Source of the DNA: a virus
Lineage: Duplodnaviria > Heunggongvirae > Uroviricota > Caudoviricetes
Length of the DNA stretch: 7,646 nt
IMG/VR virus record: IMGVR_UViG_2778261463_000007
Location: 1-7,646 of that record
Reading direction: 5' to 3' (one strand)
Of this stretch, positions 1-7,646 are shown piece after piece. The notes below the pieces were generated by a model that made no database searches, was not told the origin of the DNA, and saw only the letters and a list, made by a program, of their open reading frames with translations. The first letter of the stretch is position 1. Each line of letters begins with the position of its first letter. Position numbers and translations under genes: made by a program.

Positions 1-43
1 ACCGGAATTGAAGTGGTGGCCTGATGGTTACAACTAAACTGTT

Positions 44-63
44 CTGCCGACTGAGGTAAGTCG
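44..63 (-). other. 7-bp perfect inverted repeat (GCCGACT / AGTCGGC) with 6-nt loop, immediately 3' of the tRNA-like element on the minus strand; function unknown
   Basis: Read directly: plus strand gccgact-gaggta-agtcggc. No U-tract follows on either strand, so not a canonical intrinsic terminator. Confidence 0.3.
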
Positions 64-67
64 GCGC

Positions 68-144
68 TGGACCGCCAGCGGGGAATCGAACCTAGCGCAC
101 TCAACTTAAAGGGTTGACGCTCTTTCCTGATGAGCTAGTAGCGG
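68..144 (-). tRNA. Atypical tRNA-like element (possible pseudo-tRNA); anticodon triplet by position is TTT, identity uncertain
   Basis: Minus-strand read CCGCTAC-TA-GCTC-ATCAGGAAA-GAGC-G-TCAAC-CCTTTAA-GTTGA-GTGCG-CTAGG-TTCGATT-CCCCG-CTGGCGG-T-CCA. Conserved U8, A14, G18G19, canonical T-loop TTCGATT, 5-bp anticodon stem and 6/7 acceptor pairs are present. Position 33 is C instead of the near-universal U, and the T-stem has two mismatches. Starts 1 nt after the CCA of the neighbouring tRNA. Confidence 0.45.
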
Positions 145-145
145 T

Positions 146-221
146 TGGTGGCCCTTGCTGAATTTGAACCAGCGCCCTTGCGATTATGAGTCGCTCGCTC
201 TCACCACTGAGCTAAAGGGCC
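146..221 (-). tRNA. tRNA with anticodon CAT, tRNA-Ile2-like (lysidine type; anticodon-based tools would label it Met); resembles E. coli ileX and the ileZ of Stx-type phages
   Basis: Reverse complement gives GGCCCTTTAGCTCAGTGGTGAGAGCGAGCGACTCATAATCGCAAGGGCGCTGGTTCAAATTCAGCAAGGGCCACCA: 7-bp acceptor stem, D-arm GCTC/GAGC, anticodon loop CTCATAA, T-arm GCTGG-TTCAAAT-TCAGC, encoded CCA. The anticodon arm CGACTCATAATCG matches my recollection of E. coli ileX rather than elongator or initiator tRNA-Met. Confidence 0.8.
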
Positions 222-353
222 TCGAGCAGCATAATAACGTTACGGGATTAATACCGCAAATCTCAGAGAAAGCCCGACAAACCCAACTAAGCGCACCTCT
301 TATCTGGTCCGCCAAAGAGCTTAATGTCCGGTGCAGATTTTCGATGTAAAAAA

Positions 354-371
354 CCGCCTGGCTGCGGGTTT
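354..371 (-). terminator. Weak candidate intrinsic terminator (4-bp GC stem CCGC/GCGG, 6-nt loop, followed by U6 on the minus-strand RNA)
   Basis: Plus strand aaaaaa-ccgc-ctggct-gcgg-gttt; on the minus strand the hairpin is followed by six T. The stem is short, so stability is marginal. Confidence 0.25.
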
Positions 372-694
372 AAGTTGTGTGGCGTAGGAACCACTCTTAC
401 CATGATATGCATACTTTTACGATCGTAAAGTGTTTGTTCATACCCTGCATGCTGCATGATTCACCCCACAGACAATCTCTGGATTGTTGCGACGTTTGGC
501 AAGATACAATTAAAGATTATGCATTCTTCTATGCACGTATTTTTCTTCAAAAGTAATGTCTTTATTAAGGTTATATAAATAACTCATAAACCCAAATAAT
601 TAAATATATTTAGCACTTCTAATAAAAAAGATTGATCTTAATTTTCTGAGTGAAAGATAGCCATCTATTTATTAGTTTGCATGACTTCTTATTT

Positions 695-710
695 TGTGAT
701 AGTGATCACA
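695..710. promoter_or_regulatory. Perfect match to both half-sites of the CRP consensus TGTGA-N6-TCACA, upstream of the porin gene
   Basis: Read directly: tgtga-tagtga-tcaca at 695-710, about 110 bp upstream of the porin ATG at 820. Confidence 0.4.
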
Positions 711-738
711 TATAAAGAATCGGACTCCTTAATTTTCC

Positions 739-767
739 TTGTATACATTATACACAGAAATTAAATT
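739..767 (+). promoter_or_regulatory. Candidate sigma70 promoter for the porin gene (-35 TTGTAT, 17-bp spacer, -10 TAAATT)
   Basis: Hexamers read by eye with canonical spacing; each is a 4/6 match to consensus. Shine-Dalgarno GAGGA at 809-813 lies 6 nt before the ATG. If the start site is near 775, the CRP site would be centred near -72.5. Confidence 0.3.
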
Positions 768-819
768 TTCATCCTGATAGCATTTTGTCGTCCAATTAAC
801 TCCCACCAGAGGATAAAAA

Positions 820-1926
820 ATGAAAAATTTAACAGTGGCACTTTCTGCTGTAGCAGCATCAGTATTTCTGGCAACGTCTTCAAATGCAGCAGAAATATAC
901 AATAAAGATGCAAACAAAGTGGATTTATACGGTAAAGCAGTTGGTTTACATTATTTTTCTTCTGATAAGGACCAAAACGGAGATCAGACTTACGCACGCC
1001 TTGGATTCAGAGGTGAAACCCAAATAAATAATTATATTACTGGTTTTGGTCAGTGGGAATATAATTTCCAGGGGAACAACCCTGAAGGGGATGGAGCTCA
1101 AACTGGAAACAAGACTCGCCTGGCATACGCTGGTCTGAAGCTTGCAGATGCTGGCTCTCTTGATTATGGTCGTAACTACGGCGTGGTGTACGACGCATTA
1201 AGCTACACTGACGTCTTCCCGGAGTTTGGACCTACCGCAGCGCAAAAGGATAACTTCTTCGTTGGTCGTGTAGGCGGTGTTGCCACATACCGCAACACTG
1301 ACTTTTTTGGACTGGTCGATGGGCTTAGCTTTGCAATTCAGTATCTGGGAAAAAATGAACGCAAGGATAAACCAGATACTTCAAACGGAGAGGGTGTAGG
1401 TGGCTCTGTCAGCTATGAATATGAAGGATTTGGTTTTGTCGCAGCATACGGCGCTGCTGATCGTACTAAAAATCAGAAAAAGGCTGAGCTTGGTAAAGGG
1501 AAAAAAGCTGAACAGTGGGCCACCGGGGTAAAATATGACGCAAATAATCTGTACCTGGCTGCCAGTTATGGTGAAACAAATAATACCCGTGCAATATCGT
1601 ATGGTGATAATATTTCAGGAGTGGCGAATAAAACCGAAGATTTCACTGTTGTGGCACAATACCAGTTCGACTTTGGATTACGCCCGTCTCTTGCTTATAC
1701 CCACTCTAAAGCAAAAAACCTTTCATCCAGTACTGATATTAGTAAAAAACATGATGACGGATATATTGAAAAATTCGTTGAAGTAGGGGCTTCTTATTAC
1801 TTCAACAAAAATATGTCTACATACATAGATTACAAAATCAATATGCTCGATAAAAATAAATTCACTGAAAGAACAGGAGTATCAACCGACGATATTGTCG
1901 CTGTTGGTCTGGTTTATCAGTTCTGA
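820..1926 (+). CDS. General porin of the OmpC/OmpF/NmpC family (prophage-borne, NmpC/Lc-like), 368 aa, with N-terminal signal peptide
   Basis: Signal peptide [23 protein letters not shown] followed by mature N-terminus [16 protein letters not shown] typical of enterobacterial porins; PEFG loop-3 motif; C-terminus [24 protein letters not shown]...[16 protein letters not shown] ending in Phe. Strong RBS. Gene is markedly more AT-rich than the flanking phage genes. Confidence 0.95.
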
Positions 1927-1971
1927 TTTATTCTGTAAGAATATGCCGGGGGAGTGAGAACTTTTCTGGCA

Positions 1972-2000
1972 TATAAAGTGGTGCCCTCATGCCACTGCAA
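1972..2000 (-). promoter_or_regulatory. Candidate late promoter (pR'-like) downstream of Q: -35 TTGCAG, 17-bp spacer, -10 TTTATA on the minus strand
   Basis: Position matches where lambdoid Q proteins act (promoter and qut site just downstream of the Q gene); hexamers read by eye only. Confidence 0.2.
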
Positions 2001-2070
2001 AACGTTGGACAGTACTTAACTTTTCCAACGAACTTTCTGTTATTTATTAACCTTTTTGGTTTTTATACTT

Positions 2071-2097
2071 GGGCGCTTTGCGCCCATTTTTTATTTT
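2071..2097 (+). terminator. Rho-independent terminator for the porin transcript (GGGCGC-TTT-GCGCCC then A-TTTTTTATTTT)
   Basis: Perfect 6-bp GC-rich stem, 3-nt loop and a T-rich tract on the plus strand. On the minus strand no U-tract follows, so it should not terminate Q-gene transcripts. Confidence 0.7.
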
Positions 2098-2104
2098 GTA
2101 CGCC

Positions 2105-2527
2105 TTATATCCCTGCCCTAGAGGACGCAGTTTTACGACGTATCGAATAATTTGTGCTCACATATCGATCCATCTCAAGGCGAACATCTAGCATCATCAA
2201 CATACCATCAACCACTCCTTCAGCTTTTTGCAAACGCTTTCCAATATGCGTATCCGAACATCCATGTTTCATTGCTAACTTCATGAACGTCATCCCATAT
2301 ACGTAGTAATCAACCAGCATGTCATGCATATCGGCGTTGTTCTTTTTCAGGCGAGCCATACAACCACATATAATCATCGCGTCATCATCGGAACACTGCG
2401 ATCGCGATTTTACTTTTGACGGTATCAGCCCCTTAAATCCGGCGGCAATGCCTGACCATTCCACGTCTTCATGATTATTTGCGACCCATGCCCCCCAACG
2501 TTCAAGAACCATTTGAATATCACGCAT
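2105..2527 (-). CDS. Q: Late-gene antitermination protein Q (QuuD-like family)
   Basis: Translation [62 protein letters not shown]... closely resembles my recollection of E. coli DLP12 QuuD. Start placed at the ATG preceded by GGAG 8 nt upstream; the ORF track extends to a TTG at 2542. Sits last before the late region, as Q does. Confidence 0.9.
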
Positions 2528-2544
2528 CAACTTTCTCCACAAAA

Positions 2545-3540
2545 TCAGGCCAGCACACCAGTTGCCAGCGCACGATCGATAAAACGAAATATCAGCTCCA
2601 GCTGGGAGCCATACTTCACTTCAAATGCCACGGTATCCGCATGCAGCTCGTCGTGATGCTTTCTGCACAAAGGCAACACAAAGAGGTCATGCGCTTTTGT
2701 ACCCATTCCCCCCTGACCGTGACCTATCAGGTGGTGGGGATCATCAGCAGGCTTTCCACAACATGCACACGGCTGTGTCTTAACCCAGCGCGTGTACTTT
2801 TCATTAACCCAGCGGCGACGTTTTGGGCGTAACATAAAAGACTCCGGCGACTCCGGATCCACTTTCAGCGCCAGCACCTTTTTCGCTTTATCCTGGATAA
2901 TGCTGGTGGCAGGAACCGAAGGAACAAGGTCACTCTCCCGGGTGACAGACGGCACAACAGGATTCGGTAATCTCAGTGCCTTACGGGCTGCACTTTCCGG
3001 TAAGGTATCCGCCAGGTCATTACGAACCAGCCACCAGCACAGTTCCGGCATTGTCACAACATGACTATCATCAAAACCGAGATCCCGACGCACGACAGAC
3101 AACACCCAGCGAGCACAGTTATCCGTTGCCATTGATTCCAGCCGTTCCGTGAACTGATCGCACAGCTGGTTATCGCAGTGCCAGCACAGACGGATTGCAC
3201 CCGGAGCGTGTCGCATTGTGGTCATGTTCTCGCTGTGCCAGTCGGAATGAGGCCACTGGCAGCCTTTTTCACGAAGTAACCAGCTTTCAAGACATTCCAC
3301 TCCACCAGCACGACGGATTACTGCCTCATTGCGGAACACGGCCCGAACGGCAGGATCATCCGCCAGCGGTTGTGATGCCGCCGGAACGGCACCGCTGGCG
3401 AAAGATGAATAACGTTCCGGCTCAGGCTCCAGCAGGACACGCCCCTGCATAAACAGGGGCATCAGCTCTGAACCTGGCCTGAACAATACGATCCCCATAC
3501 GCGGGGCAATTTCAGGGGTCAGTAGTGCTCTCACGGTCAC
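2545..3540 (-). CDS. Cys/His-rich nin-region protein, likely DUF968 family (YdfU-like), with a C-terminal HNH-nuclease-like motif
   Basis: 331-aa ORF immediately upstream of Q. C-terminal segment [43 protein letters not shown] fits an HNH-type zinc-binding pattern; a second Cys/His cluster (CQWPHSDWH...CWHCDNQLC) lies in the middle. GTG start at 3540 or the in-frame GTG at 3534, with GAGG upstream. Confidence 0.85.
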
Positions 3541-3585
3541 CTCAGCGAACGATATTGCATGAACACAGGAGAAAAAATTCAGCCA

Positions 3586-3843
3586 TCACGCAGTAAACTC
3601 CTTCACCAGAGTTTCAAACTGGCTTACCTTGCCTTCCAGTTCCGCCACGCAATCCACCAGCTCATCCACCGCCTTTTGTGTGCGGTGTTTTGCCTGCAGC
3701 AGATCACGAAGCGCCGGAGTAAGCTGCTTGCGGAGCGTATCCTTTGCCACGCTCATTTTTTCCATCTGTTCAGCACAACGAAGCATCTCCTGCGCCTGGC
3801 GACGAAGTTGTTCCGGTGAAACAGTGGCTGTTCTGTTATTCAA
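3586..3843 (-). CDS. Hypothetical 85-aa protein, predicted helical/coiled-coil, unknown function
   Basis: ORF with TTG start overlapping the DnaB-like stop (TTGA overlap) and GGAG upstream. Sequence is heptad-like and rich in charged residues and Leu. I recognise no family. Confidence 0.6.
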   Translation of the reverse strand: MNNRTATVSPEQLRRQAQEMLRCAEQMEKMSVAKDTLRKQLTPALRDLLQAKHRTQKAVDELVDCVAELEGKVSQFETLVKEFTA

Positions 3844-5240
3844 AATAAACGCTCCGCTTTACTGCCCGACATGCGGTTATTGCTGTATCTGCGCGGATTG
3901 CCCGGCGTCATGGGTGTGGAAAGAACCTGAGCGCTTTCCTGATCCACAGGCAGAAAATGCCCGTTATGAAAACGCCGGTAAATGGTCCCGAGAGTGCCAT
4001 TACGCTGTTTCGTGATGTTGATTTCTGCTATGCCTCTGGCCTGTGTATCCGGGTTATACACCTCATCCCTGTAAAGCATCAGAATGATGTCGGCATCCGC
4101 CTCTATTTCCCCGGAATTTTTCAGATCCGAGTTCATGGGGCGTTTATTGGGTCTGGATTCCACACCACGGGAGAGCTGACTCAGTGCAATCAGCGGGAAA
4201 CCGCCGGATTTTGCCAGACTTTTAAGTCCCTTTGAGATTTCCCCCACAGCAAGGTCGTGACGCCCCGTGCTGCGGGTTTTAATCAGACCGAGGTAATCAA
4301 CCACCACCAGCGCCGTTTCCGGATGCTTCATCCGGTGGTACCTCGTGGTTGCACATATCTCATCAATGGTCAGATTTGCCTGGTCCACCATCCAGATATT
4401 ACGCCCCGTCATTCGTCCCACACCCTGTGAGAAACGTGCCCAGTCTTCGTCTTCAAAACGGGCAGCAGACTTAAGACGGGATACCGGCATTCCACCGGCA
4501 GAAGACACCATACGTTCACCAATCTGGATGTTCGCCATCTCCATGGTGAACAGAAGCACGCCATGCCCCTGCTCAGTCACCTTGTCGATGATGTCCAGCG
4601 CCAGTTCGGTTTTCCCCATCGAAGGACGAGCCGCAATGAATACCAGGTCGCCTGGCTCCATACCCCCTGTTTTTGCGTCCAGTTCATCAATACCGGTCAT
4701 CAGCGTTCTGGATTTCTCCAGTCCCTGATTCCGGCATTCAACACGGCCCACCACTTCCGGAAGGACATCATCAATGTGAACCGGCTGAATGACGCCCTTT
4801 CCGGTCGACAGTGAGGCCATCATGTTCTGCGCATCCTTCAGGGCATCCTCGGCTGCTTCGCAGGTATGTGCATCCCGTAAATTCTGTAATGCTTCGGTCA
4901 GTGTTTTTTCTGCATCGCGCAGTACGGCATTTCGCCGCAGCGCTGCAACATAGTGTTCCAGTGAAGACTTCACCCAGGTTTTGCGCCCGGTGTCGGTAAT
5001 CACCGGGGCAAGTTCCGGCATCTCATTGCACAGCAGCACGGGGTCAATGACGCCGGATACGCGGGCCTGTCTGCAAATCCCCGCGTAAATATCCCGGTAC
5101 TGACGCACGAAAAATACATCCGCCGGAAGCGTGGCCAGAATATCCATCACTTCCGGATCTGCCCCACGCAGAAAAAACGCGCCAATCACCGCACCTTCCA
5201 GGTCATCGTTACGCCATGCCGGGGTGTTCTGGCTGGTCAT
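3840..5240 (-). CDS. dnaB: DnaB-family replicative DNA helicase (phage-encoded, P22 gene 12-like)
   Basis: 466 aa; Walker A ARPSMGKTELALD, Walker B-like LVVVDYLGL, DnaB motif IALSQLSRGVESRPNKRP, DnaB-like N-terminal domain. ATG overlaps the stop of the upstream gene (ATGA) and is preceded by GGAGGTG. Confidence 0.95.
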   Translation of the reverse strand: MTSQNTPAWRNDDLEGAVIGAFFLRGADPEVMDILATLPADVFFVRQYRDIYAGICRQARVSGVIDPVLLCNEMPELAPVITDTGRKTWVKSSLEHYVAALRRNAVLRDAEKTLTEALQNLRDAHTCEAAEDALKDAQNMMASLSTGKGVIQPVHIDDVLPEVVGRVECRNQGLEKSRTLMTGIDELDAKTGGMEPGDLVFIAARPSMGKTELALDIIDKVTEQGHGVLLFTMEMANIQIGERMVSSAGGMPVSRLKSAARFEDEDWARFSQGVGRMTGRNIWMVDQANLTIDEICATTRYHRMKHPETALVVVDYLGLIKTRSTGRHDLAVGEISKGLKSLAKSGGFPLIALSQLSRGVESRPNKRPMNSDLKNSGEIEADADIILMLYRDEVYNPDTQARGIAEINITKQRNGTLGTIYRRFHNGHFLPVDQESAQVLSTPMTPGNPRRYSNNRMSGSKAERLF

Positions 5241-6124
5241 GCGGCAACACCTCCGATACGAGAACGGTAGCTGGGCCAGTTAAACGACAACCAGTTGCGC
5301 CCGCCATCGGTGATCCTGTCGGCAATCCGGGGACTGATGAACGCCCACAATTCTTCCGGTGAAAGGTTGCTGATCAAGATAGTTGGCAAAATACCCTCAT
5401 ACCGGGCATTGATAATTTCCTGCAAAATGGCCATTTCAGCCGCACTGCCAAACTGAACGCCGACTTCGTCGATGATCAGCAAATCCAGTGACGCATAATG
5501 CTCAATGACGTCATCCGCTGTTTTTTCACTGTCATTCCGCCAGCAGTTTTTCACAGCACGGGTAAGGCGCATCACGTCGGTGATCTCCACACTGGCCAGA
5601 TAGTTACGGATGATGTGTTTTGCCATTGATACCGCCAGATGATTTTTCCCGGTACCGCAACTGCCGGTCATAACAAGACTGGTACCGTTCTCCAGCATAT
5701 CTGGCCAGTTCTCCGCATAGCGGCGACAGGCCGCAAGATTTCTGGCTGCGTCAGGATTAACCTCCAGATAATTATCAAACTCGCAGTCCCGAAAACGCAG
5801 AGCAATTCCGGCGTTATCAGTCAGTTCTTCCGCCTTGAGGGACGACAGCTCCATGGTCAAATCGTTGGCCTCAGCTATCAAGCAGTCAGGGCAGCATGAA
5901 ATTTTTTCTCTATCCTCGCCATTACGATCGCTCCACACCAGAATATGTGTGTGGTATTCGCCATGTTTTTCGCAACACCCGCGCCCTTCACGCATCCAGC
6001 AGGATCGATAAGGCCATGGCTTTTCGCCATTCTGAGCAAATGCAATCTCTGCCCGTAACTCATCCATCCGCGCCTGTAGTCTTGTTTGTTGTTCACGCAG
6101 GTTAAGTGTCATCATCGCTGTCAC
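5237..6124 (-). CDS. dnaC: DnaC/IstB-like AAA+ helicase loader with an unusual N-terminal Cys-rich region
   Basis: Walker A GSCGTGKNHLA and Walker B LLIIDEVG in the C-terminal ~190 aa. The ORF track start at 6124 is GTG; a more likely start is the ATG at 6115 with GAGG 8 nt upstream. N-terminal ~90 aa contains CWMREGRGCCEKHGEYHTH...SCCPDC. Confidence 0.9.
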   Translation of the reverse strand: MTAMMTLNLREQQTRLQARMDELRAEIAFAQNGEKPWPYRSCWMREGRGCCEKHGEYHTHILVWSDRNGEDREKISCCPDCLIAEANDLTMELSSLKAEELTDNAGIALRFRDCEFDNYLEVNPDAARNLAACRRYAENWPDMLENGTSLVMTGSCGTGKNHLAVSMAKHIIRNYLASVEITDVMRLTRAVKNCWRNDSEKTADDVIEHYASLDLLIIDEVGVQFGSAAEMAILQEIINARYEGILPTILISNLSPEELWAFISPRIADRITDGGRNWLSFNWPSYRSRIGGVAA

Positions 6125-6125
6125 C

Positions 6126-7118
6126 TCAGAATGTCAATTTGTCACTGGATTTACCGAATTTGTCAGACATGGCTCCCAGGCCAGCCAGGACATCGACCTG
6201 TCGCTGTCGCCCACCTCCGGGAGCGGCTGGCTGTTGCCAGGATTCGTCAAAGTGCCGATCGGGGCCAAAGAACGTCGACGCCTGCTTCACGAACTGTGTG
6301 CCGGTATTTCCTGTAGCACGTACCCAGGCGGCATAACGTCTCACACCATCAAGCATGGTCTCCGGTTTTATTCCCTCCCTGAGACGGGCTTTCCAGGCTT
6401 TGAAGGCTGCTGACTTGGAATTGCCACCAGCACGTTTGGGATATTCCTGCCAGACCTGTTCAAATTCCGGTGAATATTCCTGTCGGGCGGAACGCGCTGG
6501 TGCAGACGCGTCAGCGGATGCGCCAATAGTGTTTTTAGTCTCCGTTGTAATCTCTGTAGTAATCTCTGTATTTGTATCAACATTCGGCGTATCCCCTGTT
6601 CCGTTATGACGTTGGGGGGTGTTCCGTTTTAACGTAATAGCTGTGTCGCTGATTGCGTTATTGCTGTTACTTTCTGGCGAAACAGAAGAAGGTGTGGTAA
6701 TGGCAGCAACTGCCTGTGGGTTGATCCCGACAAACAAAATATTGCTGCATTTCACACCATCGAGCATTTCTACGGTGCGTAAATCCAGAGTAATAAACCC
6801 TGCATCGCGAAGACGCTTCAGCGCATCTGCGGTTTCCCTTTTCCCGAAGCCAAATTGCTCAGCAAACGCCTGATAGCTTCTTTGCAGTTTGTCACCCTGA
6901 AAACGCTTGCGATATCCCAGCAAAGCCCCGGTATGCTCATCCCGGAGTTCTGTCGGGCGGTACCAGTAAACAATTTCTGAAAGCAAGGCGATAGCAGTCG
7001 CATCCGGACGACCACTGGGTAGCCGAATATGTTTCCACCAGTTCGCGGGGGTGACATTGCCGGAAATATTAATTTGACCAATAGCCATAACTTCCGGTGT
7101 AGGTGCGTAACGACTCAC
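6126..7118 (-). CDS. O: Replication initiator, lambda O-like (replisome organiser)
   Basis: 330 aa; N-terminal domain resembles initiator/replisome-organiser proteins of lambdoid phages; low-complexity linker with TEITTEITTE repeats; conserved-looking C-terminal domain. GTG start preceded by GGGAGGTG, overlapping the upstream stop. Position immediately before the helicase loader and helicase. Confidence 0.9.
   Translation of the reverse strand: MSRYAPTPEVMAIGQINISGNVTPANWWKHIRLPSGRPDATAIALLSEIVYWYRPTELRDEHTGALLGYRKRFQGDKLQRSYQAFAEQFGFGKRETADALKRLRDAGFITLDLRTVEMLDGVKCSNILFVGINPQAVAAITTPSSVSPESNSNNAISDTAITLKRNTPQRHNGTGDTPNVDTNTEITTEITTETKNTIGASADASAPARSARQEYSPEFEQVWQEYPKRAGGNSKSAAFKAWKARLREGIKPETMLDGVRRYAAWVRATGNTGTQFVKQASTFFGPDRHFDESWQQPAAPGGGRQRQVDVLAGLGAMSDKFGKSSDKLTF
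6541..6660. repeat. Direct repeats inside the O-like gene: candidate iteron-type replication origin
   Basis: Tandem GTAATCTCTGTA x2 at 6547-6570; TGTTCCGTTATGACG at 6597-6611 and TGTTCCGTTTTAACG at 6620-6634 (13/15 identical, 23 bp apart); further TTGCGTTA/TTGCTGTTA-like repeats to about 6680. Confidence 0.45.
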
Positions 7119-7339
7119 ACGGCACCTCCCAGGCGTTTAAACATTTTTCCGGACTGAAACACTGCCAGTGGATAACTCAGGGTATGAGTACGTCCCTGAA
7201 CCTGGCAGACAACCTTCTGGCTTTCTGTATTGACCAGGCAAACCCGCAGAACGTGGCCGTTGCTGGTGGTGAACCACTGCCCCACACGGGGGCAATGGTT
7301 GTATCGGTGATACCGGAAATTAACGATGTGGCGGATCAT
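7115..7339 (-). CDS. Hypothetical 74-aa protein with three Cys, immediately upstream of the O-like gene
   Basis: ATG preceded by strong GGAGGTG at correct spacing; stop overlaps the GTG start of the O-like gene. I recognise no family. Confidence 0.6.
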   Translation of the reverse strand: MIRHIVNFRYHRYNHCPRVGQWFTTSNGHVLRVCLVNTESQKVVCQVQGRTHTLSYPLAVFQSGKMFKRLGGAV

Positions 7340-7527
7340 GGACGCACCTCCGCCGTAGTTACGTATTTAACCGGGCTACCTTTCATTGAGATGGTTTCAC
7401 ACATCTCTGCCGCTTTCAGTTCTGCCGTTTTTCTGGATTTATAGCGACGGTGCCAGACAGATACATCCGTGCTAACTGATACATCGTTCTGAGAGATCCC
7501 CTCATAATTTCCCCAAAGCGTAACCAT
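7336..7527 (-). CDS. Hypothetical 63-aa protein (uncertain gene call)
   Basis: ORF whose stop overlaps the start of the 74-aa gene (ATGA), but no convincing Shine-Dalgarno precedes its ATG, and an alternative frame is open to the window edge. Confidence 0.35.
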   Translation of the reverse strand: MVTLWGNYEGISQNDVSVSTDVSVWHRRYKSRKTAELKAAEMCETISMKGSPVKYVTTAEVRP

Positions 7528-7646
7528 GTGTGAATAAATTTTGAGCTAGTAGGGTTGCAGCCACGAGTAAGTCTTCCCTTGTTATTGTGTAGCCAGAATG
7601 CCGCAAAACTTCCATGCCTAAGCGAACTGTTGAGAGTACGTTTCGA

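Follow-up and report, generated by a model that had tools for sequence, protein, structure and literature searches.

A YdfU-family (DUF968) protein encoded immediately before Q in an Escherichia coli lambdoid prophage carries a predicted zinc-stabilised HNH nuclease domain

The 7,646 nucleotides (nt) analysed here, positions 1 to 7,646 of the IMG/VR virus record IMGVR_UViG_2778261463_000007 (Caudoviricetes; hereafter the window), are part of an Escherichia coli lambdoid prophage and are 99.8% identical to strain LH50-c over 2 kb. Our subject is the larger of two genes lying between the replication genes and the gene for the late antiterminator Q, a member of the YdfU (DUF968) family. The early-right operon runs on the minus strand, from two small phage open reading frames (ORFs) through an O-like initiator (6126–7118; no Pfam match, phrog_270 only), a DnaC-like loader (5237–6124), and a DnaB-type replicative helicase (3840–5240) to a coiled-coil gene of 85 amino acids (aa; 3586–3843) that is coupled to the helicase gene, then the YdfU-family gene (2545–3534, or 2545–3540 as an ORF from its first GTG), and finally Q (PF06530; 2105–2527, with the start also placed at 2542). 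The annotated ATG of Q (2527) lies 17 nt past the DUF968 stop. A preliminary description of this DNA, made from the sequence alone, had counted exactly two genes between replication and Q, and gene calls across the window agree: the DUF968 and 85-aa ORFs are the only genes between the DnaB-type helicase and Q. Both are real genes, far beyond chance.

The large ORF extends for 331 aa from the first GTG to a TGA stop at 2545–2547. RefSeq and all homologues begin two codons later (MRALL...), which here corresponds to the GTG at 3534, preceded by GAGG 5 nt upstream; this GTG is the probable start and gives a protein of 329 aa plus stop, by which residues are numbered below (numbering by the 331-codon ORF is higher by two). 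The protein matches DUF968 (PF06147) over profile positions 2–171 of 171, with an expect value (E) of 4e-80 and 268.3 bits against a gathering cut-off of 27.8. It is labelled "DUF968 domain-containing protein" in RefSeq, and the PHROG family phrog_96 ("HNH endonuclease") matches it across its whole length (E 7e-175). It is collinear with YdfU of E. coli K-12 at 57% identity end to end (E 2e-144), and by sequence it is a full-length orthologue of that protein. In the Qin prophage of K-12, YdfU has the same three-part architecture and its gene the same place immediately upstream of the prophage Q gene (329 aa in the window versus 349 aa). The differences are a linker insertion of ~20 residues that is absent from the window protein, a different Q family downstream (ydfT, 250 aa), and rem, not the 85-aa gene, upstream.

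Matches to the gene are present in 68% of complete E. coli genomes (3,715/5,426), with at least 80% coverage in 2,363 and as many as six copies in a single genome. Among 1.84 billion cluster representatives, searched exhaustively, there are 2,979 related clusters, with full-length members of ~330 aa down to 26% identity, and 80 species-level loci across the Enterobacterales carry the large ORF at full length. These figures bear out the earlier expectation of a family conserved in prophages rather than unique to this one, and place the gene in a very common, already catalogued family rather than in a new kind of system. Stx2a- and Stx2d-converting phages (Stx, Shiga toxin) also carry the gene, there annotated ydfU. 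One ydfU allele, along with the Q allele ybcQ and with stx2B, is among 26 accessory genes tied to haemolytic uraemic syndrome in a genome-wide association study of Irish Shiga toxin-producing E. coli (odds ratio 4.3; PMC11950266), an association most simply explained by linkage within particular Stx2 phages.

The C-terminal part of the protein (residues 244–329; 2548–2805, minus strand) is predicted to form a zinc-stabilised His-Me finger (HNH) nuclease domain. It carries the pattern C256-A-C258-C259, H267-H268, C290-x2-H293-H294-x3-H298, which is the C-x-CC, HH, C-x2-HH-x3-H arrangement already recognised as HNH-like in the preliminary description. The pattern is conserved in 23 homologues of 67%–98% identity, in which C92, H96, H100, C117, H119, C120, C256, C258, C259, H267, H268, H282, D283, C290, H294, and H298 are invariant. 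Among 30 full-length relatives sharing 25%–60% identity, C92, C117, C256, and D283 are still invariant and H267, H268, C290, H294, and H298 are at least 90% conserved, and positions 120 and 293 can each be Cys or His, the exchange expected of metal ligands. On this evidence the zinc ligands of the domain would be C256, C259, C290, and H293 (Cys in some relatives), and the active site would consist of H268 (H267), D283, H294, and H298. The predicted structure has the beta-beta-alpha-metal fold that had been foreseen, with the catalytic His ending strand 1 and metal-binding residues in strand 2 and the helix, and the structural zinc site of the form CxxC...CxxC/H is present as C256-x2-C259 and C290-x2-H293. 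The isolated domain exceeds the Pfam threshold for HNHc_6 (PF16784; 29.3 bits against 26.6), which the full-length protein does not reach (25.8 bits); for RecA_dep_nuc (PF16786) the domain is sub-threshold (17.7 versus 26.9 bits). The DUF968 and HNH assignment predicted from the sequence is correct. A search of the family profile against PDB sequences gave zero matches.

Previous comparative work had placed DUF968, with YdfU named, in "group 7" of the His-Me finger proteins together with DUF1364/YbcO (PDB 3G27), and had hypothesised a recombination-related nuclease (Jablonska et al. 2017, PMC5714182). Gram-positive "DUF968" proteins have been proposed to be Orf(NinB)-HNH fusions (Curtis et al. 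2014, PMC4118853), and YbcO has been linked to P1 Ref and HNHc_6 (PMC4999995); no enterobacterial DUF968 member was assayed in any of these three studies. YbcO of DLP12 is a 96-aa single domain, and no significant sequence match was found between it and the window protein (phmmer E 0.91), nor does the window protein have a DUF1364 match in Pfam.

By sequence comparison, the nearest characterised enzymes are two RecA-linked phage nucleases. The first, Ref of phage P1 (PDB 3PLW; RecA_dep_nuc), is an HNH endonuclease that depends on RecA and measures 186 aa, with a disordered basic tail of 76 residues and without a folded N-terminal domain; its context, beside cre in P1, differs from that of the window gene. 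The YdfU family profile aligns with Ref residues 87–147 at a probability of 72% (E 3e-5), through PCxxC...HH...LPLCRxHH. The second, Gp16 of the Staphylococcus aureus phage PhiNM1 (HNHc_6), was described in January 2026 as a protein that binds double-stranded DNA, nicks plasmid DNA, binds RecA and is stimulated by it, boosts phage yield, and halts host growth in recA+ cells only (PMC12817073). We located Gp16 in the PhiNM1 genome, with motifs CVIC145–148 and CREH181–184 that agree with that report. It scores 389 bits for HNHc_6 and also passes the threshold for DUF968 (29.1 versus 27.8 bits), and alignment of the YdfU profile with it by hhalign gives a probability of 95% (E 3e-8). In this alignment C145, C148, H157, C181, H184, H185, and H189 of Gp16 correspond to C256, C259, H268, C290, H293, H294, and H298 of the window protein, all seven being identical; these are the named zinc-site and nuclease-centre positions of Gp16, all of which except C145 have been mutated (PMC12817073). 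The two genes are also alike in setting, since gp16 is an early gene near the replication genes with RusA a few kb off in the same operon. The HNH and zinc reading of the C-terminal domain is thereby well supported.

The N-terminal half is less familiar. Residues 1–160 are covered by no Pfam family, the DUF968 match spanning residues ~160–326 (162–328 in ORF numbering). Residues 1–198, re-predicted with a 53-sequence alignment, gave a confident model (predicted local distance difference test score, pLDDT, 88.5; predicted template modelling score, pTM, 0.70). In it the N-terminal domain (residues 1–190; 2965–3534, minus strand) passes from short beta strands through helices to a beta-hairpin (104–109, 112–117) that runs into a helix (118–124), with a long helical bundle around the hairpin and helix. 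A further Cys/His cluster reported in the preliminary description is present and conserved from C92 to C120: C92/H96/H100/C117/H119/C120 (3175–3261, minus strand) sit on this hairpin-helix. The cluster is a putative four-ligand zinc site formed by C92, H100 (relatives may have a Cys at 99 instead), C117, and C120 (Cys or His in relatives), and has no conserved catalytic His. It can be aligned in register with the C-terminal HNH at a non-significant level (E 0.06, probability 0.9%), and an internal duplication is kept as a mere possibility. The model points to a separate conserved zinc-binding domain without a solved relative. Three mosaic alleles from E. coli (P0030, P0043, and P0074) have first ~115 residues (corresponding to ~3180–3534 in the window) that are K-12 YdfU-like and much more divergent, followed by a remainder nearly identical to the window protein, which implies a recombination breakpoint inside the gene near this first zinc cluster.

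A NinB-like N-terminal domain, of the kind that Curtis et al. (2014) described for Gram-positive "DUF968" proteins, was considered and ruled out; the HNHc_6 match covers the HNH part only (profile positions 123–177 of 204), not the Orf-like part. Those Gram-positive proteins now fall in Pfam HNHc_6. Gp16 does have a NinB/Orf-like N-terminal domain, to which that of the window protein is unrelated (hhalign probability 0.09 for NinB/Orf homology), and enterobacterial proteins are, by these profile comparisons, no Orf fusions. The two domains are joined by a low-confidence linker (residues 191–243; 2806–2964, minus strand), with pLDDT <50 over ORF residues 196–207 and 218–245, which the model indicates is probably disordered. 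It ends in a strongly conserved acidic-then-basic segment, including RPKRRRW, directly ahead of the nuclease core. Ref needs its basic disordered tail for DNA binding (PMC4330346); the linker recalls this tail but is far shorter, partly acidic, and preceded by a folded domain.

On balance, we think it probable that the YdfU-family protein is an accessory nuclease of phage recombination and replication belonging to the Ref/Gp16 clade. Several observations count against this. The full-length protein falls under the Pfam cut-offs for both HNHc_6 (25.8 bits, the cut-off being 26.6) and RecA_dep_nuc (17.7 bits), and its full-length structure model is only moderately confident (pLDDT 67.6). The N-terminal domain is unlike the corresponding parts of both characterised relatives, which are a NinB-like domain in Gp16 and a disordered basic tail in Ref. 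Since Gp16 in addition requires both termini for RecA binding (PMC12817073), the RecA linkage is not simply transferable. Finally, the three most divergent full-length relatives (P0313, P0315, and P0373; 25%–30% identity) lack the HH dyad and the helix histidines, so that catalysis is not universal in the family. They retain most of the C-terminal zinc-site cysteines, and their sequences probably represent a catalytically dead sub-branch.

The surroundings of the gene help to separate this reading from others. For 78 loci, taken from different species, we scanned against Pfam the ORF immediately adjacent to DUF968 on either side, setting DUF1134-type overlaps aside. Downstream, Q antiterminators of the families PF06530, PF03589, and PF06323 were found in 49, 19, and 4 loci, respectively, and DUF1133 in 14 (these matches may overlap the Q families), with RusA in 2/78. 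Upstream neighbours are many and varied: antirepressor-type ANT/pRha proteins in ~21 loci, RusA in 19/78, KilA-N in 11, and methylases and others in the remainder. Whatever the Q family, DUF968 is thus the final gene ahead of it. This near-invariable adjacency across three unrelated antiterminator families, taken with the distant members that keep the zinc cysteines and have lost the catalytic histidines, could indicate a non-catalytic zinc-finger factor that binds DNA or RNA and works with Q in the late-transcription switch. We regard such a role as very unlikely, as the catalytic His/Asp set is kept in nearly all members, including the window protein, and the Q-containing modules L006–L010 have no DUF968 gene; a conserved gene order at the edge of a module better accounts for the presence of DUF968 next to unrelated Q families.

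The same census bears on whether the DUF968 protein replaces the junction nucleases of the nin region. The slot just before Q is held by RusA or by NinG-NinH-NinI in other lambdoid phages, and lambda NinG/Rap and NinB/Orf share with the window protein both the region between the replication genes and Q and a theme of accessory functions in recombination. No RusA, NinG, or NinB lies between replication and Q in this prophage, and Rap and T4 endonuclease VII are His-Me finger enzymes as well (PMC5714182), so one might picture a resolvase of Holliday junctions or branched DNA that clears branches before packaging. The frequent presence of RusA beside DUF968 argues against such a substitution, and RusA also co-occurs in the Citrobacter prophage L005 and in Hafnia phage yong2: the DUF968 gene accompanies the resolvase and does not replace it. 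Similarity to NinG/Rap (PF05766) was not detectable, with an hhalign probability of 4.8 over 13 columns at the Cys knuckle only and no Pfam match, and the RusA profile (PF05866) found no match in the window protein. The clear match to NinB, NinG/Rap, or RusA against which the preliminary description had set its reading was accordingly not found with Pfam or hhalign, and we consider a stand-in resolvase quite unlikely.

No sigma-70-like sites were found in 1900–4000, leaving the DUF968 gene without a promoter of its own inside the early operon, and a search for a terminator of its own found terminator-like hairpins within the ORF to be few and within the range given by shuffles. The best explanation is that the protein is made from the delayed-early rightward transcript, just ahead of the late-gene activator Q. 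These features also matter for the proposal that the nuclease is aimed at the host or at competitors, as a toxin stopping host replication, an anti-defence protein, or a superinfection-exclusion factor, and is not a recombination enzyme. Over-expression of Gp16 arrests host growth and condenses the nucleoid (PMC12817073), and in K-12 Qin ydfU is preceded by a Rho-dependent terminator that ranks among the strongest measured and that the authors of that work read as silencing toxic prophage genes (PMC9160355). The embedded, promoterless position and the lack of an adjacent immunity or antidote gene speak against a dedicated weapon, and the DUF968 protein has no match in the PADLOC defence library. 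The preliminary description had offered recombination, anti-defence, and exclusion as candidate functions of the larger protein; the first is favoured here, and the defence role is left without a PADLOC match. The host-directed proposal overlaps with the accessory recombination nuclease because Gp16 does both, and host-directed damage is best treated as an overlapping possibility alongside it; as the true function in place of recombination, it seems unlikely.

In three related prophages, a separate PF01844 HNH gene (116 aa, unrelated to DUF968) lies just upstream of the small terminase subunit (L004, 10836–11186; L005, 10951–11301; L007, 9880–10230). A PF01844-type HNH near terminase is the usual packaging-associated HNH of HK97-like cos phages. 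With this place already filled, and with several kb separating the early-operon DUF968 gene from the terminase genes, it is extremely unlikely that the DUF968 protein assists terminase at cos in the manner of HK97 gp74, common as terminase-assisting HNH proteins are in cos phages (cited in PMC12817073).

The 85-aa gene starts at a TTG, preceded by GGAG 8 nt upstream, in a 4-nt overlap with the dnaB stop (TTGA), and it adjoins the helicase gene in phages too (for example phiP27 and Stx1a, Stx2a, and Stx2d phages). The length of the ORF is kept across 174 protein clusters, almost all of them from Escherichia. At period 3.5 the protein has a hydrophobic power of 99.9, where shuffles average 14.6 (standard deviation 10.9) and 0/2,000 reach its value, which makes "coiled coil", the original label, a fair description. 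A 72%-identical allele occurs on >1,000 contigs; in 5/5 contexts read it has the same dnaB overlap, and in 5/5 it is directly followed by Q with no DUF968 gene. The two genes had been presented as a cargo pair, a framing that does not survive this coupling to dnaB and this separation from DUF968. The product of the 85-aa gene is a small coiled-coil protein in its own right; translation of the gene is coupled to that of the phage DnaB helicase, and the gene belongs to the replication module rather than being a partner of DUF968.

More distant relatives are arranged differently. In Shigella phage 75/02 Stx (L091, 3036–3749), one makes up the C-terminal 82 residues of a 237-aa protein from the leftward early operon, an operon of the 933W-like Stx phages; this explains why matches of the 85-aa protein to two PHROG families were confined to their C-terminal parts. 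In Hafnia phage yong2 a free 85-aa gene (L092, 3477–3734) lies several genes upstream of DUF968, in a locus with the order Dam-RusA-DUF968-Q. The protein appears to be a mobile helical module. Rem (83 aa), encoded upstream of K-12 ydfU, was compared as a candidate homologue and is unrelated (BLASTP E 36), and a PADLOC scan of the 85-aa protein gave an 18-bit coiled-coil-type match only.

Elsewhere in the window, a porin gene lies downstream of Q on the opposite strand (820–1926, plus strand). It is intact (368 aa; Porin_1, E 2e-125), with a low G+C content in the upstream region and at the 5' end (0.30–0.33 over 401–1000). In strain LH50-c an otherwise near-identical porin gene is interrupted by an internal stop and is a pseudogene. 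The corresponding slot of closely related prophage modules (about 5822–6925 in L006, L009, and L010; 5627–7035 in L008; 5637–7503 in L007) contains a porin, the KwaA/KwaB pair of a Kiwa defence system, or a cluster of three genes that includes DUF4325; lying between Q and the lysis genes, it looks like a hotspot for cargo and defence genes. A strong G+C-rich hairpin followed by a T-run (TGGGCGCTTTGCGCCCA TTTTTTATTT) at 2070–2086, in the gap where the convergent porin and Q genes meet, is probably the porin terminator. Two adjacent phage-borne tRNA genes, tRNA-Lys(TTT) and tRNA-Met(CAT) by ARAGORN, occupy 68–144 and 146–221 on the minus strand; the second is annotated tRNA-Ile by RefSeq in a near-identical genome, which implies a lysidine-modified CAT anticodon. 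Within the initiator gene there are a 12-nt tandem repeat of 2.7 copies (6539–6570), encoding TEITTEITTE, and a pair of 16-nt direct repeats 23 nt apart (6597–6612 and 6620–6635). The lambda ori lies inside the O gene, and these repeats are candidate origin iterons.

Returning to the accessory nuclease that we favour, the C-terminal ~85 residues would act as a zinc-stabilised His-Me (HNH) nuclease of the same clade as P1 Ref and PhiNM1 Gp16, and their most likely activity would be to nick or cut DNA without sequence specificity, using a divalent metal. Binding of DNA or of a partner is probably the task of the basic RPKRRRW segment and the separate zinc-binding N-terminal domain. That the window protein is a nuclease is likely. 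By analogy with Ref and Gp16 it would probably act on recombination or replication intermediates, in a way that favours phage DNA replication and recombination, and it would be accessory rather than essential. We lean slightly towards such a role; the analogy suggests that RecA may stimulate the enzyme, but this is the weakest step and we hold it only tentatively. A stronger form of the proposal, in which YdfU is the enterobacterial counterpart of RecA-coupled Ref and Gp16 equipped with a new N-terminal zinc module, possibly a dead second His-Me finger (a "dead plus live" tandem HNH), is a speculation that we rate as rather unlikely.

The YdfU family is among the commonest gene families of E. 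coli prophages, is represented in the K-12 "y-ome", and stands beside Q in Shiga-toxin phages. To the earlier family assignments the present analysis adds a residue-level link to Ref and Gp16, the finding that the enterobacterial proteins are not Orf fusions, a model of the N-terminal domain, and a quantitative census of gene order. If the RecA-coupled form is in fact true, a RecA-stimulated nickase encoded just before Q, including in Stx2a-converting phages, could couple the SOS/RecA state of the cell to phage replication and to late-gene, and hence toxin, output.
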